64,000 nucleotides of DNA from Patescibacteria group bacterium. Its GTDB lineage: Bacteria > Patescibacteriota > Patescibacteriia > UBA9570. The notes below the pieces were generated by a model. That model had not been told where the DNA came from. It worked only from the letters and a program-made list of their open reading frames with translations, and ran no database searches. The stretch is from NCBI GenBank assembly GCA_041660305.1, contig JBAZWO010000001.1, positions 418,268 to 482,267 of the forward strand. The letters are read 5' to 3'. The first letter of the stretch is position 1, and each line of letters opens with the position of its first letter. Position numbers and translations under genes: made by a program. Below, in pieces: positions 2,833-54,305 of the stretch.

Positions 2833-3501
2833 ATGATTACGGTAAAAAACTTAATTAAATCATTCACTATGGGTGAAGTAGAAGTACACGCTCTGCGCGG
2901 TATTAGTTTTACCATTAAAGATGGAGAATTTGTTGGTATTATGGGTAAAAGCGGTTCTGGTAAATCTACATTATTGCGTCAACTTGGCTTAATTGATGAT
3001 CCAACTAGTGGTGAAATTTTTTTCGATGACAAAGATACCCGCGATTTATCCGCTACCGAACGCGCGCGCTTCCGCCTAACTCACTTGGGCTATATTTTTC
3101 AAGAGTATGCTCTGATTCCAGAATTAACCGCTTTAGAAAATGTTATGTTGCCAGCCATGATGCGCGGCAATAAAAAAGCGATTTATTTGGACAAAGCTAA
3201 ACAATTATTAAAAGTGGTAGATTTAGCGGAGCGCTGGCATCACCGCCCAAAACAATTGTCTGGTGGCCAACAACAACGCGTGGCTATTGCCCGAGCTTTA
3301 ATTAATGATCCAAAAGTATTATTCGCCGATGAACCCACCGCTAACTTAGATTCTGCTTCTACTAAAATAGTAATGGAAACATTTAGTCGTTTAAATAAAA
3401 CCACTAAACAAACTATTGTATTAGTTACTCATGAACCAGATAATAAGGCTTATTTGGATCGTACAATTATTATGAAAGATGGAAAAATTTATGGAAAATA
3501 A
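2833..3501 (+). CDS. ABC transporter ATP-binding protein (MacB/LolD type)
   Basis: Walker [10 protein letters not shown], signature [15 protein letters not shown] and Walker B VLFADEPT. Confidence 0.9.
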
Positions 3502-4705
3502 AACCCAACACTGGTTAGTAGGTATTTTTCTAGCTTGGCGCTCCATCAGCCGCGGCAATGTTGGTACCTTAGTAATGACTATCTTAATGTTAAGCTTAAT
3601 TTTTATTAATCTAATTTTTCTCACCTCTATTATTAACGGCGTTACTGTAACTGCTAACAAACAAATTATTGAAGCTATTACCGGAGAAATTTTTATTGAA
3701 GCCAAAACTGGTGACAGTTACTTAACTAAAGCCAAACAAATCGAACGTGATTTGCGCCTAATTACTAATGTACAACACGTTAGTCCACGCACTGGCATCT
3801 CTACAGAATTAGATTTCGCTGGAAAATCTGGATCTTATCGCGGTATGGCTATTAATCCTAATAAAGAAGCGGCTGTAACTACAGTGGCACAACATATGGT
3901 AACTGGGCGTTGGCTAACCACTGCCGATACCAATGCCATTGTGCTCGGTTCACAAATCGCCGGAAAACCCAAAGGCGAATTATTTGCGTATTCATTAAAG
4001 GGAGTACAGGTTGGTGATATCATTACTTTAAAATTTACCAATGGTTTTGCCAAAGATTTTAACGTAGTAGGAATTTTTGATAATGATTTTGTCCAGGCCG
4101 ATAATCGATTTTTCATTAATCAAACTGAACATGATACTCTATTTCCAAATCTAAAAGATAACGTTACCGAATTTGGCATGAAACTAACTCCCAATGCTAA
4201 TTTAGCGGCGGCCGTAACAGCCATTAATGAATTAGATATTTCTGATAACGTTCGTACCTGGGAAGATGCCGCGGGCATTACGGCTAGCTTCACGAAAAGT
4301 TTTGATATTGTAAACTTTATCGTTAGCTTTGTGGCTATTATTGTGGCCGGCATTACCATTTTTATAGTCATGTACGTAGATGTGATTAACCGCCGCAAAC
4401 AAATTGGAATTTTGCGCGCCATTGGCATTACTGAAACCGCTATTGCTATATCTTATATTTTACGAGCTATCTTTTACGCTATTATTGGTATTATCCTTGG
4501 TTTTATAGCATTCAAATTACTCATTATACCCTTGTTTATCACTAAGCCACTCCATTTACCAATTGGTAATGTGTCATTATCCATTGATAATAGCTTGCTA
4601 TACATGCGGGCTTTATCCATTTTAGTAGTAGCCTTTCTAGGTTCATACATACCCATTCAGCGCACACTGCGCATGCGTATTATTGATGCCATTTGGGGAG
4701 AATAA
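3479..4705 (+). CDS. ABC transporter permease, FtsX/MacB-like
   Basis: 408 aa with one N-terminal TM segment, a large periplasmic domain and a C-terminal FtsX-type bundle (RRKQIGILRAIGIT). It overlaps the ATPase gene by 23 nt; the start could instead be the ATG at 3491. Confidence 0.85.
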   Translation: MEKFMENKTQHWLVGIFLAWRSISRGNVGTLVMTILMLSLIFINLIFLTSIINGVTVTANKQIIEAITGEIFIEAKTGDSYLTKAKQIERDLRLITNVQHVSPRTGISTELDFAGKSGSYRGMAINPNKEAAVTTVAQHMVTGRWLTTADTNAIVLGSQIAGKPKGELFAYSLKGVQVGDIITLKFTNGFAKDFNVVGIFDNDFVQADNRFFINQTEHDTLFPNLKDNVTEFGMKLTPNANLAAAVTAINELDISDNVRTWEDAAGITASFTKSFDIVNFIVSFVAIIVAGITIFIVMYVDVINRRKQIGILRAIGITETAIAISYILRAIFYAIIGIILGFIAFKLLIIPLFITKPLHLPIGNVSLSIDNSLLYMRALSILVVAFLGSYIPIQRTLRMRIIDAIWGE

Positions 4706-4746
4706 AAAACCGTAGAGGCGCCCCGCGGGGCGCCTCTACGGTTTTG
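4704..4746. terminator. bidirectional intrinsic terminator
   Basis: Perfect 32-nt GC-rich palindrome CCGTAGAGGCGCCCCG/CGGGGCGCCTCTACGG (4710-4741) flanked by A6 and T4, lying between convergent genes. Confidence 0.75.
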
Positions 4747-4781
4747 TTTGTCGCTTAAACCAAGCTAATTAATATTAATAA

Positions 4782-7570: not shown

Positions 7571-7658
7571 GGAGAGGTGGCAGAGTTGGTTGAACGCGGC
7601 GCTCTCGAAAAGCGCTATGCCCGCAAGGGTATCGCGGGTTCGAATCCCGCCCTCTCCG
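7571..7658 (+). tRNA. tRNA-Ser (anticodon CGA)
   Basis: Acceptor GGAGAGG/CCTCTCC, anticodon stem GCGCT/AGCGC with loop CTCGAAA, long variable arm, T-loop GGTTCGAATCC. Confidence 0.9.
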
Positions 7659-7699
7659 CCTACGTCCCGAGTACTCGGGACTCCGGCGGACGAGTCCGC
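7659..7699 (+). repeat. tRNA-abutting twin-hairpin element, copy 1 (+)
   Basis: CC TACG TCCCGAG TA CTCGGGA CTCCGG then GCGGAC GA GTCCGC, starting directly after the discriminator base. Confidence 0.7.
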
Positions 7700-8658: not shown

Positions 8659-9628
8659 TATTTTTTGGCACGCCCGCATTAAACTTACTGTCTGGTATAG
8701 CCTAATTATTTTTGTTATTATTTCTATTTTTAGTAGCATGTTTTATTATAGTTTAGCCATTGAAATTCGTGATAACATTTTATTATCAGATATTGAAAAT
8801 CCAATTTTAATTAATGTGCTAATTAATCAAACGTTATTAAATATCCGGCGCATTATTATTATTGTTGATGGCGGCTTATTAATTGTTACCGCTGGTTTAG
8901 GTTATTTTTTAGCCGGAAAAACTCTGCAACCAATTCAAGCTATGTTACAAGCTCAACAACGTTTTATTGCCGATGCTTCACATGAATTACGCACTCCTTT
9001 AACAATTATTAAAACCACTACTGAAGTAGCTCTGCGCCAAACCAATCCAGCCGATTTTCAGCAAGCCTTAATTAGCAACCTGGAAGAAGTGAACAGCATG
9101 TCTAAAATCGTAGAAGATTTATTATGGCTAGCAAAACACCAGCAAACTAAGCCAACTTATGTTACTAAAAACGTTTCCCTGATTGCCTTGGCAAATAACG
9201 TCGGCCGCGCGATGCGGCCATTGGCTTTGAAAAAAAACATTAAATTAATCATAACCACTGCTGGCGCTGGTAATATATTAGGCAACGCCGATGATTTAGA
9301 ACATTTAATATTAAATTTATTAGATAACGCTATTAAATATACTCCCCGCCAAGGAATCGTTACTATAACTGTGCGGCCAAACAATGCCACAGTAACACTA
9401 ATCGTACAAGATTCTGGCCAAGGCATTGCCGCAAAAGATTTGCCTCATATTTTTGAACGATTTTACAAAGCCGATTCAGCTAGAACTTATACCAAACAAA
9501 GCGGCACCGGCTTGGGCTTGGCTATAGTGCAAACTATTGTAAAACAACATTATGGAACGATTACCGCTGAAAGTGCTGTGGGAGTCGGCACTCTATTTAC
9601 CGTGCATTTTCCCGCACATACCTCATAA
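8600..9628 (+). CDS. sensor histidine kinase (HisKA + HATPase_c)
   Basis: Two TM segments, H-box FIADASHELRTPLT, N-box LLDNAIKYTP and G-boxes DSGQGI / GTGLGLAIV. The true start is uncertain because the listed ATG overlaps the regulator gene by 59 nt. Confidence 0.85.
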   Translation: MDWKKIWKQYVAWAIALKHNIFWHARIKLTVWYSLIIFVIISIFSSMFYYSLAIEIRDNILLSDIENPILINVLINQTLLNIRRIIIIVDGGLLIVTAGLGYFLAGKTLQPIQAMLQAQQRFIADASHELRTPLTIIKTTTEVALRQTNPADFQQALISNLEEVNSMSKIVEDLLWLAKHQQTKPTYVTKNVSLIALANNVGRAMRPLALKKNIKLIITTAGAGNILGNADDLEHLILNLLDNAIKYTPRQGIVTITVRPNNATVTLIVQDSGQGIAAKDLPHIFERFYKADSARTYTKQSGTGLGLAIVQTIVKQHYGTITAESAVGVGTLFTVHFPAHTS

Positions 9629-11170
9629 GTCATTACCAGAATAAGACAAATTGAAGCTTTTATTGATTAATGGAAAATCAGGAATAAAATTACCTTTTCC
9701 CGCACAACCTAACACTGTCCAATTAATAAACGACGGATCGCGGACATCTACACGCGTTACCTTCCCCTCGAAATCCGTGACAACAAAATATACGATAGCC
9801 CCGCGCCAACCTTCTGTTACACCAATACCACAACTGTTTTTTCTGAGCTGGATTTCTTTATTAGATACCATTACATTATTAACCGTTAAACTCTGTAACG
9901 CTTGTTCTAAAATTTTTAATGAAGTTTGCACTTCATGAACACGCACCTGAAACCGACTCTGCACATCACCTTCCAGTTCTAATATCGTATCAAATTTCAG
10001 TTCCGAATAAGCCGCATAAGGATAATCAATACGCGCATCGTGCTTAATACCTATCGCTCGTCCGGCTATGCCAATAACACCATAATCTAACGCGATTTGA
10101 CGATCAAGTTTACCAGTTCCCTCTAGTCGATTAAACAATGTGCTACTCGTTTGCGCAATTTTCATCACCTCTGCAAAATCTTTGCCTATTTTTTTTAAAT
10201 CCTGCAACAAAACATGACACGCTTCAATAGAAATGTCTTTGGTAACACCACCAATACAATTAACTCCACGCAAAAATCTGCTGCCAGTAAGACGTTCATT
10301 GCACTGCATGATCATTTCACGCAGACGCGCGCCATTACTTCCGCCAAAACTATATCCAGTATCCAACATAATAAACCCGATATCATTAAAGTGATTAGCC
10401 AATCGTTCCAATTCAGAATAAATCACCCGTAAATAGTTGGTTTTTTTCGAAATGTTAATATCGGCCAAACTTTCAATGGCTTGGCAAAAAGCTAAAGCAT
10501 GCGTGAATGATGTATCTCCAGACACTCGTTCGGCTAACCGTACTTTATCAACCAGTGACAACGTTTCAAATAATTTCTCAATACCTTTGTGTTTATAGCC
10601 TAACTTTGGTTCTAATAAAATAATTTCTTCACCGGCTACGCTAAATCTAAAATGCCCCGGTTCTATAATGCCGGCATGTACCGGACCAACTGGAATTTCA
10701 TAAATCCCCTCACCATCAACTTTTTGGAATTCATAATTACCAACACTAAATGGCGGCCTTTGTTTCCAACTAACATCTTTTCGTAAGGGAAAAATATGTA
10801 CGGGCCAATTTTCGTGTAACAATATAGCTTTTGGATTAGGATGTCCAATCGGATTTAAACCAAAAAAGGTTTTAATTTTTCGTTCATAGCCAGATGCTTC
10901 TGGAATATCTTTAGTAAGAGATGGAAAATCTTCTGTATTATTTAGAATAATATAGGGCACAAGAAATACATTTTCTTTAGGAACACCGAAAATATACAAA
11001 ATCCTAAAGCCTACCCCATTTTTTCTTTCATCAGTGGCTGTGATGATTTTAAGTTGCAGTCGCTGCTTATAATACAGTTCTTTACAAATATTAACAATTT
11101 CGGAAATCGGAACCGGATAAGAAACAATATTATCATCTTGTTGAGTTTTAAAACGAGGATCGATATTCAT
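9623..11170 (-). CDS. HycE/HyfG-like large subunit (fused NuoC+NuoD-like) lacking the NiFe-binding cysteines
   Basis: 515 aa. Core PVGPVHAGIIEPGHFRF...LGYKHKGIEK matches group-4 hydrogenase/NuoD. The L1 position reads RVSGDTSFTH and the C-terminus reads NLSYSGNDL, where hydrogenases have RxCGxCxxxH and DPCxxCxxR. Confidence 0.85.
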   Translation of the reverse strand: MNIDPRFKTQQDDNIVSYPVPISEIVNICKELYYKQRLQLKIITATDERKNGVGFRILYIFGVPKENVFLVPYIILNNTEDFPSLTKDIPEASGYERKIKTFFGLNPIGHPNPKAILLHENWPVHIFPLRKDVSWKQRPPFSVGNYEFQKVDGEGIYEIPVGPVHAGIIEPGHFRFSVAGEEIILLEPKLGYKHKGIEKLFETLSLVDKVRLAERVSGDTSFTHALAFCQAIESLADINISKKTNYLRVIYSELERLANHFNDIGFIMLDTGYSFGGSNGARLREMIMQCNERLTGSRFLRGVNCIGGVTKDISIEACHVLLQDLKKIGKDFAEVMKIAQTSSTLFNRLEGTGKLDRQIALDYGVIGIAGRAIGIKHDARIDYPYAAYSELKFDTILELEGDVQSRFQVRVHEVQTSLKILEQALQSLTVNNVMVSNKEIQLRKNSCGIGVTEGWRGAIVYFVVTDFEGKVTRVDVRDPSFINWTVLGCAGKGNFIPDFPLINKSFNLSYSGNDL

Positions 11171-11171
11171 A

Positions 11172-12617
11172 TTAATACACAGAAGTAGCTGAATTGATTA
11201 ATAATGTTAACGGCGCTGGAATAAACAAACTAACTGTTACTAATATGATGATTAACATAATAATAGGCAACACTGTCCACTTACCTGCTTCGCCATGAGT
11301 TACTTGTTTTTCATTGTCTCCAAACATCATAGCAACCATGTGTTTAAAGAATCCAACAAACACAAGCACTAAACCAAATAATGCCAGCACTGTTACTGCC
11401 GGATGCTGTTGTATACCAGCCGATAAAATGGTAAATTCCGTCAAAAAAATACCAAACGGTGGTACCCCAGTAATCGCAAGGAACCCAATGATAAACGCGA
11501 CTCCAGTAATAGGCAGCACTGAAAGAGCCCCTTTAACATTAGCTATTTTTGTTGAGCTATATTTTAAGAATATATTGCCAGATGATAAAAATAGCAATGA
11601 TTTAGCCAAAGAATGATAAACCATATGCAAGAGAGCCGCAAACACACCATTGCCACCAAAACCAAAGCCTAATGCCATAATTCCCATATGCTCAATGCTT
11701 GAATAGGCCAGCAACCGTTTGTAATTTTTCTGACTTAGAATAATAAACGCCGGCACTAGGATTGATATTATGCCGAAAAAAATGAGCAGCTGTTGGGCAA
11801 ATAATGGACCAACCACCAAATCGACTACTACCTTAAAGCGTAAAATAGCAAAAAATGCTATGTTCAACAAAATACCAGAAAGCAGACTACTAATTGGCAC
11901 TGGTGCCTTGCTATGTGCATCTGGTAGCCAAGTATGCATGGGCACTAGCCCCATTTTCGTACCATAACCAACGAGGATAAAAATGAACGCCATTTTAACC
12001 ACAAACGGATCAAACCCGGTAATATTTGCCCAGATTGATTGCCAGGTTATTAAGCCGCCCTGTCCAGCTTGTAGTGCTGGATACAAAAACAATAACGTAC
12101 CAAAAAAACCAAGTAACAACCCTACTGAATTGATAATTAAATATTTCCAAGCCGCCTCAATAGCCGTTGGTTTATTGTAGAAGCTAATCAAAAAAGCTGT
12201 TGAAAGAGTAGTGGCCTCAACCGCAATCCACATTAAAATTGGATTAGTGGTACAAACGGCAAACAACATGGCCAAAATAAATAAATGTAAGAGCACAAAA
12301 TATTGTTTTATCTTATGAAAATCAATAATGCCCTTCGACATTTCCACAGCTAGATAGCCGCTAGAATACCAGGAAGCGGCCAAACCCACCACCGTTACAA
12401 TCATCATAATCAAGGCTCCCAAAGCATCAACGGAAAAATAAGGAATAAATTGATATGTTCCATCTTTAACAACTAGAGTTGTTATAACCAATGCGATTAT
12501 TAATTCCACTACAGCAGCACGGCTTACTACATAACTTAATTTAGCCATTTGTTTTTTAACAAAAAATGACAGTATTGAAGCGGTGAATGGCAAAACAATG
12601 AGAAGTAGTATTAACAT
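11172..12617 (-). CDS. antiporter-like subunit (HyfD/HyfF/NuoN/M family)
   Basis: 481 aa, polytopic, with VEATTLSTAF and GYGTKMGLVPMHTWLPDAHSKAPVPISSLLSG, the proton-conducting membrane transporter family motifs. Confidence 0.8.
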   Translation of the reverse strand: MLILLLIVLPFTASILSFFVKKQMAKLSYVVSRAAVVELIIALVITTLVVKDGTYQFIPYFSVDALGALIMMIVTVVGLAASWYSSGYLAVEMSKGIIDFHKIKQYFVLLHLFILAMLFAVCTTNPILMWIAVEATTLSTAFLISFYNKPTAIEAAWKYLIINSVGLLLGFFGTLLFLYPALQAGQGGLITWQSIWANITGFDPFVVKMAFIFILVGYGTKMGLVPMHTWLPDAHSKAPVPISSLLSGILLNIAFFAILRFKVVVDLVVGPLFAQQLLIFFGIISILVPAFIILSQKNYKRLLAYSSIEHMGIMALGFGFGGNGVFAALLHMVYHSLAKSLLFLSSGNIFLKYSSTKIANVKGALSVLPITGVAFIIGFLAITGVPPFGIFLTEFTILSAGIQQHPAVTVLALFGLVLVFVGFFKHMVAMMFGDNEKQVTHGEAGKWTVLPIIMLIIILVTVSLFIPAPLTLLINSATSVY

Positions 12618-12621
12618 AATT

Positions 12622-13281
12622 TTATTCTTCTTTTAAATTTTTCATGGCCGTTACATCTAATGAACCAACTTGCCGAAAAACCAACGTTGCAAATACCGTG
12701 GCAATCATTACCCATACCAAAATATCAAATAAGATGCCTACCTGTAGCCCAGGAGCTTGTTCTAATCCCGCTAAAAAAGCAAAGGAAACAATGGCATTTT
12801 CTAATGATAAGATACCAATCATTTGTGATAAAGCTCCTTTGCGATTAATCACTAAAAACACCGAAATAAGGAGCATGGCTATGGCCAAGGGCAACATATC
12901 TACATTTTGTTCAGTCAAAACCGTAAGTGGTTTAAACAGGTCGGAATAAGTGAAGGCTGTTAACATGGCTATGATAATCAATGTAACCGGCGCATTTAAA
13001 TAAGTACTAGCTGAAAATGTTATTTGATGTTCGCGAATAAGTCGATAAAAAAACTGGGGAGCAACGATTACTTTTAATACAAAAACTAACACTGCTATAA
13101 ACAAGGGCAGCCATGATGGTTGTTGTAATGCCGAGCTAAATAATAACACCGCCACAATTAACGACTGTACCAGGTAAAGCGTAATGGTAGAAGAACTTTT
13201 TCTAGACAAGTGCATAAAAATTACCAATAAAAACAGTAATATCTGAAGAAAAAATAAAATTTGTGTTGAGTTAGAAATCAT
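12622..13281 (-). CDS. HyfE-like small membrane subunit (NuoK-related)
   Basis: 219 aa with about 7 TM segments. It occupies the HyfE position between the NuoH-like and NuoN-like genes; the motif GILSLENAIVSFAF is HyfE-like. Confidence 0.65.
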   Translation of the reverse strand: MISNSTQILFFLQILLFLLVIFMHLSRKSSSTITLYLVQSLIVAVLLFSSALQQPSWLPLFIAVLVFVLKVIVAPQFFYRLIREHQITFSASTYLNAPVTLIIIAMLTAFTYSDLFKPLTVLTEQNVDMLPLAIAMLLISVFLVINRKGALSQMIGILSLENAIVSFAFLAGLEQAPGLQVGILFDILVWVMIATVFATLVFRQVGSLDVTAMKNLKEE

Positions 13282-13285
13282 GCTG

Positions 13286-14215
13286 CTAGATAATTAAACT
13301 AATAGCGATAAGACTTAATATGAACGAAATAAATAATAAATCCGGTAATCTAAAAAATCTATATTTTGCAATACTCGATTCTAAAATGGCAACGAAACTA
13401 CTAATAAATGTTACTTTCAATATTAATAATCCTAACGCAATTCCAATACTGAGCCACCCCATAGTTATTGCAATTCCCCATGGAAAAAACAGATTAGCAC
13501 CTAACGCTAGAAAGATTAAAAATTTACTGGCCGCTGCCCATTCTATTAATGCTAATCTCTTGCCCGAATACTCCAAAATCATCGCTTCATGAATCATAGT
13601 TAGTTCCAGATGAGTAGCTGGATTATCAAATGGAAAGCGCGCTGTTTCCGCTAGCAGTGCCAACACAAAGGCCAAAAAAGCCAACACAACTGGAGCAAAC
13701 GAATATAATGACAACGAAGAAATGGCCGCCGTTATTTTAAACAGATTCGTAGAATGAGCTGCTAGCGCTACGGCTAATAACGAAAATATTAACCCGCCTT
13801 CAGTTAACGCTGCTACCGTCATTTCTCGACTCGAACCAAACCCACCAAAGGCGCTACCTACATCGATACCGGCTAAGGCCAAAAAAAACGTGCTAAGAGC
13901 CATTAAGTACACAATAACCAATAAATCACTTAGAAAATTATTAGAAAATACTACTGTAACCAATGGAATACTAGCACCCACAATAATCATAACCGCAAAA
14001 ATAAGATAGGGCGCAAATTTAAATATCCAAGACGCATCGGTGCTGATAACCTCATCTTTATGTAATAATTTCCATAAATCTCGATACGGTTGTACAACAC
14101 TAGCACCTGCTCTGTTCTGAAATTTGGCTTTAATTTTTCTTACTAATCCAATAAACAACGGTGACAAAAATGGTACCAGTAGTAATTGAATTGTCCAAAA
14201 AATAATAGTGTCCAT
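13286..14215 (-). CDS. NuoH/HycD/HyfC-like membrane subunit
   Basis: 309 aa, polytopic, with RKIKAKFQNRAGASVVQPYRDLWKLL and FGGFGSSREM, typical of the NuoH/HycD family. Confidence 0.8.
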   Translation of the reverse strand: MDTIIFWTIQLLLVPFLSPLFIGLVRKIKAKFQNRAGASVVQPYRDLWKLLHKDEVISTDASWIFKFAPYLIFAVMIIVGASIPLVTVVFSNNFLSDLLVIVYLMALSTFFLALAGIDVGSAFGGFGSSREMTVAALTEGGLIFSLLAVALAAHSTNLFKITAAISSLSLYSFAPVVLAFLAFVLALLAETARFPFDNPATHLELTMIHEAMILEYSGKRLALIEWAAASKFLIFLALGANLFFPWGIAITMGWLSIGIALGLLILKVTFISSFVAILESSIAKYRFFRLPDLLFISFILSLIAISLII

Positions 14216-14221
14216 AGCTTT

Positions 14222-16267
14222 CTAGATAACTAAAAATACTAACAAGATCATTAGACTAATAAATAGATATAACACATAAATATTAACGCTGCCACTTTGA
14301 ATTTTTTTCATTTGCTCAGAAATTTTTGTAACCACTTTAATTATCGGTTGATAAAAGTAAGTACCGTAAACATCTTCAATTTCAAGCTTTACGCTCATAG
14401 GCTTTGGAACATAGCGCATCGCCACATCGTGATACTCAATACCCGTTTGTTTCGTAGGTTTTAGTATTCCACTAAAAATAGTAATAATCGACCGCGCAAA
14501 GCCAGTGGCGGTTATTTCCATACGCGAACCTAATTGCGTTCCGCAATCCCAAGTGGCCGCTTTAGTTATCGTTCTATCGCGCGTCAACCGGTGTACTATA
14601 AAAAATATCATTACCATTGCTAATACCAAACTGATAAAAATAGTTGGTACTGAAACAGCGGCAAAACCATCTTGTAAACTAACTGAACTTAAATTAGACA
14701 GCACCACGCCATTTACATGATAAAAAGGATTTAAATTGGCAATAACCGACAAGAGAATAGCCGTTACAGCACCTGAGAATAATCCTATTAGGAGAGTGAG
14801 AACGGCTAAGATAGCCATGCCAATTCTCAATGATAAAGACACCTCTTTCGTTTGACGCACTGCTTCACTTCTCGGCCGAGCTAAAAAAGTAGTCCCAAAT
14901 GCCTTAACAAAGCAAGCGGCAGCCAATCCACCGGTAAAAGCTAATGCTCCGGCAGCCAATAAAAATATCCATTGCACGGAAACATCTAACGATCTTATAC
15001 CACTAAATAACGTTTGAAACGTGATCCACTCACTAAAAAACCCATTAAACGGGGGTAGTGCGGAAATAGCGATAGAGCCGATTAAAAAGAAAAAAGCAGT
15101 CTGTGGCATGTATTTAATGATTCCGCCATAAGCCTCGATATTTCTGGTTTTCATTTTTAAAATTACTGAACCAGCTCCTAAAAATAATAATGCTTTAAAG
15201 ATAGCGTGATTCAAAGTATGAAACAATGCCGCTACCAAACCAAGCATGGCTAAAGATTTCATATCCAGCGCTAGAAACACCAATGAACTTCCTAATCCTA
15301 ATAAAATAATCCCAATATTCTCAATACTATGATAAGCTAGTAGTTTTTTAATGTCGTGTTCAGTGAGAGCGTATAATACACCCAATAGTGCCGATATTGA
15401 TCCTATAATTATTATAATAATACCCCACCACAATGGTACATTAGGCATGAGATCAATAAAAATCCGAATAAACATGTATACCCCTGTTTTGATCATGACT
15501 CCAGACATTAATGCGGACACATGCGAAGGAGAAGCAGGATGAGCTTTTGGCAACCAAATATGAACTGGAATAATACCAGCTTTCGTACCAAAACCAAGCA
15601 ATGAGAGTATGAAAATAATATTTTTTATAAGCGGAGAAACATTGCCAAGTTGCCCTTTAATAACCAAAAAATCAAATGACCCTGTAGCTTGATAGAGTAA
15701 TAAAAAAGCGCACATGATAAACGCGGTGCCAATGTGCGTCATAATAAAATAAAGTGACCCGGCTTTAATATTATCTTTTTCCTTATGTTCAAAAATAACC
15801 AAAAAATACGAAGCCAGTGACATGATTTCCCATACGATCAAGAAAAAAAAGGTGTTCGAAGCACTCACTACTAATATCATCCCCGCTATGAACAGATTGT
15901 AGAAAAAACCTAAGGCGCCCAGACTGTATTGTTTGTAATAATGTTTTACATAGCCTAGCGCATAAATCGAGGCACACAATGAAATTAGTGTGATAATAAA
16001 AATAAAAAAAGCTGCTAACTTATCTATATTAAATGATAAAGTTAGTAACGACAACGATGAACCGCTGCTATAAGAGAAGGTTGCGCCAAAAAGCAATACA
16101 GTTACTGAAGCTATTAGCCCTGTAATGGCACCTACCATAGAAAAAGTATTCCCCCATAAATTAGCCGCATGATCATTCTTTCTTAACCATAACGAACCAA
16201 GCGCTCCAATTATTAAGGCTATTAGAGACGAAAAAAAGAAAAATTGAGCTAAGCTAGAACTAAACAT
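14222..16267 (-). CDS. NuoL/HycC/HyfB-like antiporter-like subunit
   Basis: 681 aa with WEIMSLASYFLV and GFGTKAGIIPVHIWLPKAHPASPSHVSALMSGVMIKTG, the HyfB/NuoL family motifs. Confidence 0.85.
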   Translation of the reverse strand: MFSSSLAQFFFFSSLIALIIGALGSLWLRKNDHAANLWGNTFSMVGAITGLIASVTVLLFGATFSYSSGSSLSLLTLSFNIDKLAAFFIFIITLISLCASIYALGYVKHYYKQYSLGALGFFYNLFIAGMILVVSASNTFFFLIVWEIMSLASYFLVIFEHKEKDNIKAGSLYFIMTHIGTAFIMCAFLLLYQATGSFDFLVIKGQLGNVSPLIKNIIFILSLLGFGTKAGIIPVHIWLPKAHPASPSHVSALMSGVMIKTGVYMFIRIFIDLMPNVPLWWGIIIIIIGSISALLGVLYALTEHDIKKLLAYHSIENIGIILLGLGSSLVFLALDMKSLAMLGLVAALFHTLNHAIFKALLFLGAGSVILKMKTRNIEAYGGIIKYMPQTAFFFLIGSIAISALPPFNGFFSEWITFQTLFSGIRSLDVSVQWIFLLAAGALAFTGGLAAACFVKAFGTTFLARPRSEAVRQTKEVSLSLRIGMAILAVLTLLIGLFSGAVTAILLSVIANLNPFYHVNGVVLSNLSSVSLQDGFAAVSVPTIFISLVLAMVMIFFIVHRLTRDRTITKAATWDCGTQLGSRMEITATGFARSIITIFSGILKPTKQTGIEYHDVAMRYVPKPMSVKLEIEDVYGTYFYQPIIKVVTKISEQMKKIQSGSVNIYVLYLFISLMILLVFLVI

Positions 16268-16269
16268 AG

Positions 16270-16794
16270 TTATTTTACTTCAAACACATCAAACATTTTT
16301 AATAAGTAGCACAGAATCGTTTTGGGCGATGGCGGATCGCCGGGAATTTGAAAATCAACAGGTATAACACTAGCTACCCCATCTAATACCGCATAAGATC
16401 CTCTAAAAATACCTCCATTAATGGCATCATCGCCTACGGCTACCACTAGTTTAGGAGTTGGCGTAGCCTCATAAGTTTTAATTAACGCTTCGCGCATGTT
16501 TCTAGAAACGGCTCCAGTAACCATCAACATATCTGCGTGTCGGGGCGACGCTACAAAATGAATGCCAAAGCGTTCAATATCATAATAGGCATTACTTAAT
16601 GCCGTTAGTTCCTGTTCACAAGCATTGGTTGAACCGGTATCTACTTCTCGAATAGCTAACGACCCTTTAAATAATTTTTTCACTTTTTTTTCTAACTGTT
16701 GACCGATTACAGTAATATCATCACTGCGATTTAATGACTTTACATCGATAACTGTTTTAGGTGTTGAAAATATTTTATAGTAAAATTTGAACAT
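16270..16794 (-). CDS. NuoB/HycG-like small subunit with a degenerate Fe-S site
   Basis: 174 aa. YDIERFGIHFVASPRHADMLMVTGAV is the NuoB/HycG core. The ligand positions read GSTNACEQE, GDDAINGG and PGDPPSP, against the usual GSCNGCE, GxCAxxGG and PGCPP. Confidence 0.8.
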   Translation of the reverse strand: MFKFYYKIFSTPKTVIDVKSLNRSDDITVIGQQLEKKVKKLFKGSLAIREVDTGSTNACEQELTALSNAYYDIERFGIHFVASPRHADMLMVTGAVSRNMREALIKTYEATPTPKLVVAVGDDAINGGIFRGSYAVLDGVASVIPVDFQIPGDPPSPKTILCYLLKMFDVFEVK

Positions 16795-23556: not shown

Positions 23557-23629
23557 GGGCACATAGCTCAGTGGTTAGAGCACAGCCCTTATAAGGCTGG
23601 GGTCGATGGTTCAAATCCATCTGTGCCCA
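23557..23629 (+). tRNA. tRNA-Ile (anticodon TAT)
   Basis: Acceptor GGGCACA/TGTGCCC, anticodon stem CAGCC/GGCTG with loop CTTATAA (anticodon TAT). The body TAGCTCAGTGGTTAGAGC ... GGTC is Ile-like. Confidence 0.85.
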
Positions 23630-23670
23630 CCTACGTCCCACGTCTGCGGGACTCCGGTGGGTAAACCCAC
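23630..23670 (+). repeat. tRNA-abutting twin-hairpin element, copy 2 (+)
   Basis: CC TACG TCCC..GGGA CTCCGG then GTGGG TAAA CCCAC, filling the spacer between tRNA-Ile(TAT) and tRNA-Val(GAC). Confidence 0.7.
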
Positions 23671-23675
23671 TACAA

Positions 23676-28914: not shown

Positions 28915-28988
28915 GGACGCTTAGCTCAGTTGGTTAGAGCATCTGCTTTACACGCAGAGGGTCGCAGGTTCGAATCCTGCAGCGTCCA
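28915..28988 (+). tRNA. tRNA-Val (anticodon TAC)
   Basis: Acceptor GGACGCT/AGCGTCC, anticodon stem TCTGC/GCAGA with loop TTTACAC, T-loop GGTTCGAATCC. Confidence 0.9.
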
Positions 28989-29040
28989 CCTACGTCCTCC
29001 TACACTAAGGTTTCGGAGGACTACGGTGGATAAATCCACC
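28989..29040 (+). repeat. tRNA-abutting twin-hairpin element, copy 3 (+)
   Basis: CC TACG TCCTCC ...loop... GGAGGA CTACGG then TGGA TAAA TCCA, starting directly after the discriminator base. Confidence 0.7.
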
Positions 29041-29077: not shown

Positions 29078-29314
29078 ATGCCTTATGTTGTTGGATTAAT
29101 CATGATTGCTGTAGCGGTGGCTTTTATTGTAAAAACGGAATGGTGGGTATCGGCTTTTGGTAGAGTTACCTGGGCTGAACAAAACCTTGGGGCTGAAGGT
29201 GGCACACGCATTTTTTACAAGCTGCTCGGTTTCGGTTTAATCATCTTGGCATTTATGATTATGTCTGGTAGGATATTCACTGTGCTGGATTGGGTATTTG
29301 TGCGCGGAAATTAA
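29078..29314 (+). CDS. hypothetical small membrane protein
   Basis: 78 aa with two predicted TM helices. No family is recognised. Confidence 0.4.
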   Translation: MPYVVGLIMIAVAVAFIVKTEWWVSAFGRVTWAEQNLGAEGGTRIFYKLLGFGLIILAFMIMSGRIFTVLDWVFVRGN

Positions 29315-29412: not shown

Positions 29413-30117
29413 TTATTTCTCATTTTCCAAAGCCAATTTAAGCAAGAATATAGTATCTGATTTTAATTTAGCTTTAGCCCAGTCTTTTTGAGATTCAATA
29501 AGCAACTCTCCTAGACCATCAAGTATATGACGATTATCCAGCTTGTCTAATAATTCAAGACAGCTAACTAATAATTTTTTTAATGGCATACCAGATCTAG
29601 CGTTGATTAATTCTTTATTTATCGGCCAATTATTTTTAGAAAAAAAATATACATCATAGATATCACGACTAGTTCTACCGATTCTTTCATACATAGCCAT
29701 TAATTTATTGGCAAACATATCATCTTCTGTCATTACCAACATTGAAATGCCAAGCACTGTTTTTATTTTATAGCTTGCACCAAAATTTCGACGATTAATT
29801 TCCAACTTAACATTTTGCGCGCCAACCACTTTATTATCATAAGACAAAATATATAACAGATTAAATCTTTTCTTAAAAACTTCTTTTAACTGCCCATATT
29901 TTTTTAGAATTGTTTTAATCCGTTCAAATACATAATCTTCTTGTTCCGGATTGAGCAAATCAAAATCCAAATCTACCGAGTTACGATCCAGACCGTAAAA
30001 CAACAAAGCCGCCGTACCACCCTTAAATCCAAGGTGGGGAGCTAATGTCGTGTCAGAAAAAATATCTTTTAAAATCTGTAACAATATATTTTTATGTTTA
30101 GGATAATCTAGCGCCAT
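29413..30117 (-). CDS. AbiEii/AbiGii-family nucleotidyltransferase toxin (type IV TA)
   Basis: 234 aa. The N-terminus LLQILKDIFSDTTLAPHLGFKGGTAALLFYGLDRNSVDLDFD is the DUF1814/AbiEii signature. Confidence 0.8.
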   Translation of the reverse strand: MALDYPKHKNILLQILKDIFSDTTLAPHLGFKGGTAALLFYGLDRNSVDLDFDLLNPEQEDYVFERIKTILKKYGQLKEVFKKRFNLLYILSYDNKVVGAQNVKLEINRRNFGASYKIKTVLGISMLVMTEDDMFANKLMAMYERIGRTSRDIYDVYFFSKNNWPINKELINARSGMPLKKLLVSCLELLDKLDNRHILDGLGELLIESQKDWAKAKLKSDTIFLLKLALENEK

Positions 30118-47364: not shown

Positions 47365-47619
47365 ATGAATAACGCTACTACTAAACTATCTGAAAAATAT
47401 CAAATTGTTGTGCCGAAAATAATTCGCCAGCAAATGCATTTAACTACTGGCATGACTGTATTACTACAACCACTCGATGCCAACCGAGCTATTTTGGTAA
47501 AACATCCAAAAGATTATGTAACTGCTTTAAGTGGTTTGGGTCAAGATATCTGGAAAAAATTAGGCGGGGTTAATTACATTAAACGAGCTCGCAAACAATG
47601 GGACAAATCATCGGTCTAG
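47365..47619 (+). CDS. AbrB/MazE/SpoVT-family antitoxin (VapB-like)
   Basis: 84 aa. The swapped-hairpin motif is KYQIVVPKIIRQQMHLTTGMTVLL. It overlaps the PIN gene by 22 nt. Confidence 0.7.
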   Translation: MNNATTKLSEKYQIVVPKIIRQQMHLTTGMTVLLQPLDANRAILVKHPKDYVTALSGLGQDIWKKLGGVNYIKRARKQWDKSSV

Positions 47620-48005
47620 ACACTGGCATTTTTGTTTATTTACTTGAAAAACATCGTATGTATTTTCCAATTGTTGAAGAATATTTTATCCAAATTCAAG
47701 CTGGCAAATTATCTGGTGTGTTTGCTAGTATTGGCATGATTGAATTATTAACTGGGCCAAAACAACTTGGCAAATTTGATATTGCTAATCAATACCGTGA
47801 TTTATTAACTTCCTTTCCTAATCTGTCTATTATTGATTTAAACGAAACGGTAATTGATGTATCGTCCGATTTACGCGCTCAATATCACATTACTACACCC
47901 GATGCCATTCATTTAGCTAGCGCCATATACTCTGGAGCAAATAAATTTATTACTAACGACAAAGCTCTAAAAAAAGTAAAAGAAATTAATGTAGTATTAT
48001 TATAA
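47598..48005 (+). CDS. PIN-domain toxin (VapC-like)
   Basis: 135 aa with an N-terminal IGLDTGIFVY (Asp), a mid E (IELLT), a TPDAIHLASA Asp and a C-terminal ITND. Confidence 0.8.
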   Translation: MGQIIGLDTGIFVYLLEKHRMYFPIVEEYFIQIQAGKLSGVFASIGMIELLTGPKQLGKFDIANQYRDLLTSFPNLSIIDLNETVIDVSSDLRAQYHITTPDAIHLASAIYSGANKFITNDKALKKVKEINVVLL

Positions 48006-49863: not shown

Positions 49864-49985
49864 TTTGTAGTCATATATACGAAATTATATATAAAACTCA
49901 TGTATCGATGGGATGTTGATACGTGAGGTCAATTCTTAATAATCCAAAATAACAATTGATCGTTATCGCAAGATAATCGATCTTT

Positions 49986-51489
<1,504 letters not shown>

Positions 51490-51552
51490 TAAGGAGTACG
51501 GTGTGTTAACAGGCAGACCTCATTGCCTGTGTAACACGTTGGTCGCTGCATT

Positions 51553-51578
51553 TTTCTTGTCACAGTTTGGTTGTTAAA
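51553..51578 (+). other. 3' half of the 16S processing stem
   Basis: TTTCTTGTCACAGTTTGGTTGTTAAA pairs with 49838-49863. Confidence 0.65.
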
Positions 51579-51580
51579 AA

Positions 51581-51609
51581 ATACCGCGCTATTTATGCGC
51601 GGTATTTTG
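51581..51609 (+). terminator. terminator-like hairpin directly after the 16S
   Basis: ATACCGCGC TATTTAT GCGCGGTAT followed by TTTGTT. Confidence 0.45.
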
Positions 51610-51613
51610 TTGC

Positions 51614-51642
51614 TAGACAACCTAGTAAAAATAAGCTATAGT
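51614..51642 (+). promoter_or_regulatory. putative promoter of tRNA-Ile(GAT)/tRNA-Phe
   Basis: TAGACA (51614-51619), 17 nt, TATAGT (51637-51642). Confidence 0.45.
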
Positions 51643-51738
51643 ATTTTTTGCTTTACCTCACCCCTACCCCCTCTCCTCAAAGGAGAGGGGAAAAAATATT
51701 ACACCTAATTTATTAAGGTAAAGCAATTAGCAAAATAT

Positions 51739-51812
51739 GGGCGTGTAGCTCAGGTGGTTAGAGCGCAGTCCTGATAAGACTGAGGTCCCTGGTTCGAGTC
51801 CAGGCATGCCCA
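51739..51812 (+). tRNA. tRNA-Ile (anticodon GAT)
   Basis: Acceptor GGGCGTG/CATGCCC, anticodon stem CAGTC/GACTG with loop CTGATAA, T-loop GGTTCGAGTCC. Confidence 0.9.
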
Positions 51813-51907
51813 CCTTCGCTCGCTTCGCTCACTTCGGTGGGCAGGCCCACTACTCTTTCATGGAGTAGCCGGCTTGCCGGCCGAAGTTCTGCGCTAGCAG
51901 AACGTAG
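51813..51907. repeat. 95-nt GC-rich quasi-palindromic tRNA spacer (two facing twin-hairpin elements)
   Basis: CC TTCG.. CTTCGG TGGGC AGG CCCAC | CTACTC..GAGTAG | GCCGGC TT GCCGGC CGAAG TTCTGC GCTA GCAGAA CGTAG. Confidence 0.7.
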
Positions 51908-51979
<72 letters not shown>

Positions 51980-52005
51980 CAAACAGACCACATTAGTATT
52001 TATGT

Positions 52006-54188: not shown

Positions 54189-54232
54189 GGCGGGCTTGCC
54201 CGCCGAAGCTTGAGCACAGCGAAAAGCGTAGG
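54189..54232 (-). repeat. tRNA-abutting twin-hairpin element, copy 5 (inverted, as a 5' leader)
   Basis: Plus strand reads GGCGGG CTTG CCCGCC GAAG ..... CGTAGG and then tRNA-Pro. The reverse complement is CCTACG ... CTTCGG CGGGC AAG CCCGCC. Confidence 0.65.
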
Positions 54233-54305
54233 CGGGGCGTGGCGCAGTTGGTAGCGCGCATGGTTTGGGACCATGAGGCCGCTGGTTCGAGCCCAGTCGC
54301 CCCGA
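54233..54305 (+). tRNA. tRNA-Pro (anticodon TGG)
   Basis: Acceptor CGGGGCG/CGCCCCG, anticodon stem CATGG/CCATG with loop TTTGGGA, T-loop GGTTCGAGCCC. Confidence 0.9.

Follow-up and report, generated by a model that had tools for sequence, protein, structure and literature searches.

In insertion sequences of the IS200/IS605 family and their hairpin-only derivatives, as in IS608, a guide located inside the element reads the target through base pairing. Repetitive extragenic palindromes (REP), including bacterial interspersed mosaic elements (BIME) and hairpin-forming REP doublets (REPIN), are short GC-rich imperfect palindromes that lie outside genes and near gene 3′ ends, occur in mosaic head-to-head and tail-to-tail arrangements and carry a GTAG or CGTC tag, with CTAC/GTAG at a hairpin foot (PMC3733652, PMC2817692), and the GTAG-23 REPs of Thermomicrobium roseum sit inside small palindromes (PMC3733652). 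Prokaryotic miniature inverted-repeat transposable elements, or MITEs, are non-autonomous, small and intergenic, are flanked by short direct repeats and are patchily distributed among relatives; a 2024 review of them mentions tRNA not a single time (PMC10969869). Here we describe an element of about 45 nucleotides (nt) that resembles REPs as a 20–40-bp imperfect palindrome in extragenic DNA and MITEs in having a 5–6-bp target repeat and empty orthologous sites. It was encountered in six copies in a 64-kb stretch of DNA (the window; GC content 37%) from a 491,640-bp contig of a metagenome-assembled genome termed 'Patescibacteria group bacterium', a representative of the candidate phyla radiation (CPR). 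We lean, if only slightly, towards the view that these six are copies of a small insertion element, non-autonomous and kin in kind to REP and MITE, that targets the CCA ends of tRNA genes.

The window holds 13 tRNA genes and one 16S gene (ARAGORN; Rfam). A covariance model (R1) made from an alignment of 52 element copies (A1), 50 of which stem from other genomes, was run across the whole window with filters off and returned exactly six copies, all overlapping tRNA ends, in complete agreement with an initial annotation that had picked out the same six places from the sequence alone. The next-best matches were the reverse strands of these copies with at most 17.3 bits, and everything else stayed at or below 10.4 bits. 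Only about 0.4% of the window lies within 5 nt of one of the 26 tRNA ends, so that chance is excluded. Non-coding YCCRCC sites in the window are occupied in six of seven cases at tRNA ends and in none of three elsewhere. A further stretch of about 18 kb from outside the window, which brings the coverage of the source genome to about 82 kb, contains neither a tRNA nor an R1 copy. The loose pattern TACG..CTNCGG alone is not significant in the window (9 matches vs. 4.4 expected); the signal resides in the full architecture and not in the loose motif pair.

The inserted piece reads (C)TAC-G[hairpin 1]C-TNC-GGYGGN′-YARR, with hairpin 1 being variable past its first pairs. The anti-terminus GGYGGN′ (X′) is complementary to a hexamer NCCRCC (X) located directly 5′ of the insert and is followed by a spacer of 4–5 nt. 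In the window genome, X is always the terminus of a tRNA gene: at tRNA 3′ ends it comprises nt 70–73 plus C74 and C75, while at 5′ ends, read on the other strand, it is the complement of tRNA nt 1–4 or 1–5 plus one or two leader nt. Past the spacer the terminus is repeated directly, in the manner of a target-site duplication, and after this second copy the original A76 is often still found. Four copies in plus orientation follow tRNA genes and two inverted copies precede them, such that, as originally described, both orientations occur and the tRNA is on the side of the CCTACG end. In all six, X′ is the complement of the adjoining tRNA terminus:

7655–7699, plus strand: copy after tRNA-Ser(CGA), TCCGCC / TACG / hairpin 1 / CTCC / GGCGGA / CGAG / TCCGC; X TCCGCC, X′ GGCGGA; R1 match 7653–7697, 53.9 bits.
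23624–23668 (R1 match), plus strand: focal copy after tRNA-Ile(UAU); X CCCACC, X′ GGTGGG; 53.4 bits.
28985–29040, plus strand: copy after tRNA-Val(UAC), TCCACC / TACG / long hairpin 1 / CTAC / GGTGGA / TAAA / TCCACC, then A; X TCCACC, X′ GGTGGA; R1 match 28983–29037, 45.2 bits.
51809–51855, plus strand: degenerate copy after tRNA-Ile(GAU), CCCACC / TTCG / CTCGCTTCGCTCA (without hairpin 1) / CTTC / GGTGGG / CAGG / CCCAC / TACTC; X CCCACC, X′ GGTGGG; R1 match 51807–51848, 19.8 bits.
51863–51912, minus strand: inverted copy before tRNA-Phe, outer-stem arm GGCCGG formed by nt −1 and tRNA nt 1–5; X CCGGCC, X′ GGCCGG; R1 match 51870–51914, 39.8 bits.
54189–54236, minus strand: inverted copy before tRNA-Pro; X CCCGCC, X′ GGCGGG; R1 match 54192–54238, 31.3 bits.

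Direct repeats drawn from the tRNA 5′ end enclose both inverted copies; for tRNA-Pro the repeat is GGCGGG at 54189–54194 and 54231–54236, the latter consisting of two leader nt and tRNA nt 1–4. The focal copy is made up as follows:

23557–23631, plus strand: tRNA-Ile(UAU) gene (ARAGORN; Rfam tRNA, 77.8 bits), the last four nt of which, CCCA, form the 5′ arm of the outer stem together with CC.
23626–23631, plus strand: hexamer X, CCCACC, i.e., acceptor nt 70–72, discriminator A73, C74 and C75.
23632–23634, plus strand: TAC, 5′ half of a conserved 3×3 internal loop, with T in place of A76.
23635–23652, plus strand: hairpin 1, G-TCCCACGTCTGCGGGA-C, variable in its distal part.
23653–23655, plus strand: TCC, 3′ half of the internal loop (consensus TNC).
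23656–23661, plus strand: anti-terminus X′, GGTGGG, complement of the tRNA terminus CCCACC.
23662–23673, plus strand: spacer TAAA, second terminus copy CCCAC (23666–23670) and TAC; pairs with X′ as 'hairpin 2' of the initial annotation.

The earlier extents were correct in position, and each copy reaches 4 nt further into the tRNA, the terminus of which is one arm of the outer stem. Tested on A1, a structure consisting of a 6-bp outer stem NCCRCC/GGYGGN′, a 3×3 internal loop TAC/TNC and an inner hairpin is paired in 95% of cells. Outer-stem pairs that were left free by the search pattern covary (columns 3–40: CG 28, UA 21; columns 6–37: GC 34, AU 7), none of 500 shuffles reaches the observed pairing and slid registers pair to at most 50.5%. 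The proposal of a real family with conserved unpaired motifs and variable stems that still pair is borne out. It is otherwise with the second stem, the compensatory changes of which had been taken for a selected helix. This 'stem 2' is the anti-terminus plus the duplicated terminus: its 3′ arm duplicates the tRNA terminus and its 5′ arm is the complement thereof, so that its covariation largely follows the neighboring tRNA and free co-evolution of two arms is not needed.

Trailers alone are predicted to fold into hairpin 1 and hairpin 2, and the predicted minimum-energy fold of tRNA-Ile(UAU) plus trailer is a long hairpin that unzips the acceptor stem. The second terminus is present in all tRNA-abutting copies, i.e., in six of six in the window and, among the matches listed, in 51 of 51 in the metagenome set described below, and in only about 4 of 45 non-abutting copies as counted by eye. 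Because the anti-terminus can disrupt the acceptor stem and every tRNA-abutting copy has the duplicated terminus, the latter may, on the strength of these predicted folds, act as a decoy for the former.

Relatives were compared at orthologous tRNA ends. The nearest were identified via ribosomal protein L19 (60–68% identity), as the hypothetical protein beside tRNA-Ile(UAU) had no usable homologues for finding close relatives. The gene order rplS, tRNA-Leu(GAG), tRNA-Val(UAC), small open reading frame (ORF), tRNA-Ala is kept at loci L197, L198, L199, L200, L202 and L295, and the order S1, FtsH, hypothetical protein, tRNA-Ile(UAU), tRNA-Val(GAC) at L202 and L295. The ends are occupied as follows:

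tRNA-Val(UAC) end: element in the window and L199; empty in L197, L198, L200, L202 and L295.
tRNA-Ile(UAU) end: element in the window and L295; empty in L202.
tRNA-Val(GAC) end: element in L295 and L298; empty in the window and L202.

Relatives without the element encode CCA. The junction at tRNA-Val(UAC) reads GTCCACCA-CT-ATG in L200 and GTCCACC-[TACG...GGTGGATAAATCCACC]-A-TA-ATG in the window, and removal of 50 nt from the latter yields GTCCACCA-TA-ATG, with tRNA-CCA and the ancestral flank restored. A clean insertion of 50 nt between C75 and A76, composed of 44 nt and a 6-nt repeat, thus explains how the two junctions differ. The comparison shows the copies to be gains and not heritage: where relatives keep the gene order, their tRNA-CCA ends are intact and the element is missing. 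These presence/absence data fit the original suggestion of a REP/MITE-like element that targets tRNA ends.

With regard to metagenomes, contigs were scanned with a pattern in which a T-arm, 11 unspecified bases and CCTACG are followed, after a gap, by CTNCGG. The X′ bases facing the last four tRNA nt (X′4) and the second terminus copy were left free. The following figures rest on 106 unique hits among the matches listed, and counts are lower bounds. X′4 is perfectly complementary to the last four tRNA nt in 47 of the 106 hits, where about 0.4 would be expected, and four further hits have a single mismatch, resulting in 51 copies. Six kinds of terminus are represented, TCCG, CCCG, CCCA and TCCA as well as the off-consensus CCTG/CAGG and ACCG/CGGT. 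All 51 copies feature the downstream terminus copy after a spacer of 4–5 nt (TAAA 18, CAAG 13, CAGG 8), and the A of the old CCA follows 17 of the 22 copies that end in CC. In three cases of an A·C mismatch, the downstream copy equals the tRNA terminus and not the complement of the anti-terminus, which is what target duplication predicts; the 3′ arm of the second stem here goes with the tRNA instead of with its pairing partner. Hosts are chiefly tRNA-Ser (21), tRNA-Asp (7), tRNA-Ile(GAU) (5) and tRNA-Trp (4), and host contigs are AT-rich with a median GC content of 41%. Extra copies on the same contigs mostly adjoin tRNA ends, again in both orientations.

Under the insertion reading, a trans-acting enzyme would make a staggered cut of 5–6 bp in CCA-encoding tRNA genes and place the element between C74/C75 and A76, or would do so at NCCRC-Y sites of an equivalent kind. 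Pairing of the anti-terminus with the target hexamer would choose the site or stabilize the insertion, giving a long hairpin with a conserved 3×3 internal loop (TAC/TNC) that is presumably the recognition feature. That the anti-terminus matches its target suggests either that pairing chooses the target or that correction takes place later. Transfer RNA ends would dominate in CPR because they supply a GC-rich hexamer within an AT-rich, tightly packed genome, and insertion at these ends would be nearly harmless, as the trailer would be trimmed and A76 restored by CCA-adding enzyme. In the transcript, the duplicated terminus in hairpin 2 would sequester the anti-terminus and spare the acceptor stem, which would explain hairpin 2 in every tRNA-abutting copy.

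Target duplication, together with a duplicate that follows the tRNA in the mismatch cases, argues for staggered-cut insertion rather than the 'peel-and-paste' mode of HUH enzymes, and bears on a further explanation, namely a true REP/REPIN system in which single-stranded DNA is mobilized by a REP-associated tyrosine (HUH, Y1) transposase (RAYT) encoded elsewhere in the genome, with CTAC/GTAG at the hairpin feet as cleavage tag. Such direct target repeats are not expected from it. In every copy, hairpin 1 is indeed immediately bordered by CTAC on its 5′ side, and in three of the six window copies hairpin 2 is so bordered on its 3′ side; relative to hairpin 1, however, canonical GTAG-REPs have the tag on the other side. 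The copies lie outside genes and close to gene ends, L136, L145 and L295 show mosaic and tandem arrangements, and T. roseum provides the precedent of REPs embedded in small palindromes cited above. In the tRNA-Ile(GAU)/tRNA-Phe spacer, two copies lie tail to tail and are predicted to fold as one 95-nt hairpin (−51 kcal/mol, z = −6.9) that resembles a REPIN. On the other hand, the core is common to several phyla while REP families are usually specific to a species or genus, and hairpin 1 is very diverse within a genome. No Y1/RAYT gene was found in the window or beside copies in 245 loci, save one ordinary IS200 with its own ends. Taken together, we regard a REP/REPIN system as very unlikely.

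The IS200 case emerged from a phmmer search of the ORFs of the 245 loci, carried out with an approximate IS200 query, which matched only L135 and L141. The gene (L135, 3980–4675; L141, 1903–2595; two related Verrucomicrobia) belongs to the IS200 family (Pfam Y1_Tnp, E = 4.4e-26; NCBIfam IS200 equivalog). It is separated from the element by 1.4 kb, possesses terminal hairpins of its own and is not accompanied by a second element copy, so that its candidacy as mobilizer was dropped and the vicinity is probably a coincidence.

The direct repeats of 5–6 nt that flank the insert would also arise without any dedicated enzyme, by replication template switching or microhomology-mediated copying between tRNA ends with the same terminal hexamer, in which case quasi-palindrome correction would make the arms complementary. 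This would suit two tRNAs of L295 that end in GCCCACC and have copies sharing frame, hairpin 2 and a 16-nt tail, as well as the fact that tRNA-Ser isoacceptors with their common TCCGCC are the most frequent hosts (21 of 51). The hairpin 1 sequences of the same two L295 copies are entirely different, the downstream copy in mismatch cases follows the recipient tRNA and not the presumed donor, and conservation of the core motif extends over several phyla and to sites other than tRNAs. We therefore hold an origin of this kind to be highly improbable.

The distribution beyond the window was surveyed in a scan of one genome per species with the pattern CCTACGTCC-N(4-30)-GGACTNCGGYGG, which yielded at least 119 stretches. 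About half of them are chance matches in GC-rich coding DNA and the remainder are short hairpins between genes, the inner stems of which are perfect and yet differ from one another. Although the search pattern did not cover the four bases upstream of CC-TACG, these are again complementary to the bases after CTNC-GG in such copies. Among the matches listed, the element occurs in many CPR classes, Ignavibacteria, Bacteroidota, Chlorobi, Cloacimonadota, Latescibacteria, Planctomycetota, Verrucomicrobiota, Caldisericota and Terriglobia. In this list, some metagenome-assembled genomes may bear an incorrect taxon label, and loci labeled 'Gammaproteobacteria' share a tRNA-Gly context with CPR loci. 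The statement that the elements always abut tRNA ends holds for all six window copies, and tRNA placement is common in CPR-like contigs; it does not extend to most copies from Ignavibacteria/Bacteroidota and Planctomycetes/Verrucomicrobia, which are not at tRNAs. Other stable RNAs were looked for at 18 non-tRNA loci and gave one case only, a 16S spacer. In a Giovannonibacteria genome (L111, 1776–3964), a group I intron lies inside the 16S gene and an element copy about 115 nt after the latter. Tandem element arrays with 7-nt spacers were seen in a Cloacimonadales and a Bacteroidota genome (L145, around 800–1000; L136, 1847–1930).

Several candidate interpretations of individual loci were discarded. 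A three-way junction suggested by L175 is not general. In one Planctomycete (L140/L156/L181), members of a paralogous gene family have the element 2 nt past their stop codon, and a transposase at this repeat was rejected, the upstream multi-copy gene having only a weak DUF5907 match. The same applies to a phage origin, as the core pattern in viral contigs gave 76 stretches, all of them chance matches in GC-rich coding DNA.

A number of observations weigh against insertion and in part recommend another explanation. Copies outside CPR have their own 5′ arm, end in GGCGGRCAGGCAG and are without the second hexamer, and they tend to be situated 2–48 nt after a same-strand stop codon (14 vs. 2), which hints at a role in RNA 3′-end formation. 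Hairpin 1 is wholly different between copies of one genome (window, L295), which is unlike recent transposition and more like a selected structure. In 45 of the 51 metagenome copies, hairpin 2 has C or T as its closing base, which could reflect G-C/G·U pairing in RNA. Simple cut-and-paste does not readily account for an element that brings along the complement of each particular target; either a pool of variants or correction after insertion is called for. The window contains no transposase, RAYT or integrase and the 18 kb outside it no RAYT, such that the search for a RAYT/TnpA(REP)-like gene proposed in the initial annotation ended with the IS200 genes mentioned above. No protein family recurs beside the copies either; all-against-all clustering of ORFs in two data sets gave only housekeeping neighbors (NUDIX, SpoU, LysM and similar). 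Moreover, the external copies were ascertained by patterns derived from the window copies.

On this basis, the element might be a host-selected RNA module whose hairpins take part in the formation of pre-tRNA (and mRNA) 3′ ends. For example, the trailer could fold back on the last six tRNA nt and a double-stranded RNA endonuclease could cut after C75, so that the CCA-adding enzyme would receive tRNA-CC; another option is that transcription is terminated, or exonucleases are blocked, by the twin hairpins. Apart from the stop-codon bias and the closing pair of hairpin 2, such a role would be in line with unpaired motifs that are conserved while stems vary inside one genome, with an anti-terminus complementary to the tRNA 3′ end and an internal loop beginning exactly at the position of A76, with the fixed distance to the stop codon in the Planctomycete paralogs and with the same placement before tRNA-Gly in several CPR lineages. 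However, orthologous tRNAs of relatives manage without the element, inverted copies at 5′ ends give RNA with GNA/GUA instead of UAC/UNC loops, outer-stem mismatches are A·C as often as G·U and hairpin 2 competes with the required fold-back. There is also no U-tract after hairpin 2 (T fraction 0.36 vs. 0.29 background; TTTT run in 9 of 51), for which reason an intrinsic terminator was rejected as well. A processing or termination module, as had also been considered initially, is thus unlikely as the primary explanation, given relatives that lack the element at the same tRNAs, the missing U-tract and the different RNAs produced by the two orientations. If the element had an RNA role after all, it would represent a new kind of pre-tRNA 3′-end signal.

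Returning to insertion, its most far-reaching form is that a mobile element of about 45 nt reads its target by base pairing, with the 6-nt anti-terminus selecting a tRNA CCA end or another NCCRC-Y site, and that it is served by an undiscovered enzyme common to CPR, Ignavibacteria/Bacteroidota and Planctomycetes/Verrucomicrobia. We consider this quite improbable. If true, anti-terminus variants (GGCGGA, GGTGGG, GGCAGG, GGCGGT and others) would retarget the element to different tRNAs, and it would constitute a naturally programmable, nucleic acid-guided insertion system of unprecedented small size. Should insertion as such be right, a tiny hairpin element would colonize the tRNA ends of gene-dense CPR genomes, replacing the encoded A76, duplicating the terminus and carrying its complement, and would provide a concrete case of target choice by base pairing in 45 nt. 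The affected tRNAs would be predicted to depend on trimming and on the CCA-adding enzyme. Odd 'twin hairpins' and partial duplicates of tRNA ends, which will confuse the annotation of tRNA flanks in metagenome-assembled genomes, would be explained, and the cross-phylum repeat family could mark insertion dynamics in uncultured lineages.

Further features of the window and its relatives are of note. Most of the 13 tRNA genes encode a single C after the discriminator and only tRNA-Leu(GAG) has CCA; as relatives L200 and L202 encode CCA, the window lineage has eroded its encoded CCA ends. The tRNA-Ile(UAU), with an anticodon rare in bacteria, is conserved beside tRNA-Val(GAC) in this CPR lineage (window, 23557–23631; L202, 5922–5998; L295, 3085–3160; L298, 5096–5169). 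Between tRNA-Val(UAC) and tRNA-Ala, a small membrane-like ORF of about 80 amino acids with the motif VKTEWW is present (window, 29078–29314; L197, 1345–1593; L198, 3262–3465; L200, 3013–3255). Its ATG lies 2–6 nt past the tRNA in relatives, and the insertion in the window has pushed the ORF 88 nt away and changed its N-terminus. A LAGLIDADG-like ORF sits between rplS and tRNA-Leu(GAG) in L197 (522–1175). A second repeat, GGGYTTACCCGTGCGGTTTACGAGCAAAGCGAGTAAAACGCC, is found directly upstream of tRNA genes in L197 (around 1630–1676), L199 (around 3020–3066) and L200 (around 3490–3530) and looks like a diverged inverted copy of the element, from a subfamily in which TCGCTNNGCTCA replaces hairpin 1. 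A palindrome at 4710–4741 that had been put forward as a possible relative is not matched by R1; it is a perfect GC-rich palindrome with A-run and T-run flanks (4705–4750) between convergent genes, i.e., an ordinary bidirectional terminator. In the region 49983–51980, the 16S gene is followed by tRNA-Ile(GAU) and tRNA-Phe, and then by a minus-strand protein gene; neither tRNA-Ala nor 23S is found there, which means that the rRNA genes are not linked. A cluster of NuoB-, NuoCD-, NuoH-, NuoL- and NuoM-like genes on the minus strand (9623–16794), resembling complex I or a membrane module like that of group-4 hydrogenases, is unexpected for CPR. An AbiEii-type toxin gene (29413–30117) and a PIN-domain gene (47598–48005), toxin-antitoxin-like, are present near tRNA clusters.

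At the gathering threshold, Rfam 15 returned only rRNA and tRNA in the window and nothing in the 18 loci, and nothing relevant was obtained at E values up to 10 for the L175 copy. A search of the literature for the motif strings and for tRNA-targeting palindromic repeats retrieved nothing relevant. The family, which is widespread across phyla, is therefore found in neither Rfam nor the literature searched and is so far undescribed; a match to a known repeat family, against which the initial annotation had cautioned, did not turn up. The archaeal bulge-helix-bulge splicing motif, the 11-nt tetraloop receptor and the K-turn presumably do not fit in loop geometry or sequence.

Among known systems, IS200/IS605 elements share hairpin ends, insertion beside a specific short sequence, an internal segment complementary to the target and use of either strand, in general terms. 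The present element differs in having six canonical base pairs instead of a 4-nt guide, a target that is duplicated where no duplication is expected, a varying hexamer in place of a fixed tetra- or pentanucleotide 5′ of the insertion, and no linked TnpA. Integron attC sites and the attP of CTX phage are, likewise in general terms, similar in the succession of outer stem, unpaired central loop, inner stem and variable terminal structure, in the conservation of structure more than sequence and in a short core at both junctions. Here, in contrast to attC, the consensus NCCRCC ... GGYGGN′ lacks the R″/R′ boxes (RYYYAAC ... GTTRRRY) by which the attC hairpin is closed, and there is no cassette or cargo and no integrase or array context. 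Intrinsic terminators and SPRITE sequences (named in PMC10969869) are GC-rich hairpins directly after genes and in sense orientation as well, whereas the element has a conserved internal loop, has no U-tract and also occurs inverted upstream of tRNAs. Compared with MITEs, its ends, CTACGY... and ...GGYGGN′YARR, are not inverted repeats, no related insertion sequence is known from the loci, its length of about 45 nt is below the usual size and it carries the complement of its target. Compared with REPs, the tag is on the other side of hairpin 1, where CTAC 5′ of the hairpin mirrors the canonical position and CGTC is present only where hairpin 1 starts with TC; near-identical units in high copy number are missing, the six copies in about 82 kb all having a different hairpin 1, and no RAYT, a gene that REPs typically flank, was found in the window, the 18 kb outside it or the 245 loci. 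The element thus fails defining features of REP and MITE in copy similarity and terminal inverted repeats and, as far as these loci go, apparently also in tag side and RAYT, and is set apart among short dispersed palindromic insertion elements by its in-register fusion to tRNA, the duplication of the terminus, the internal complement of the target and a core that spans phyla.

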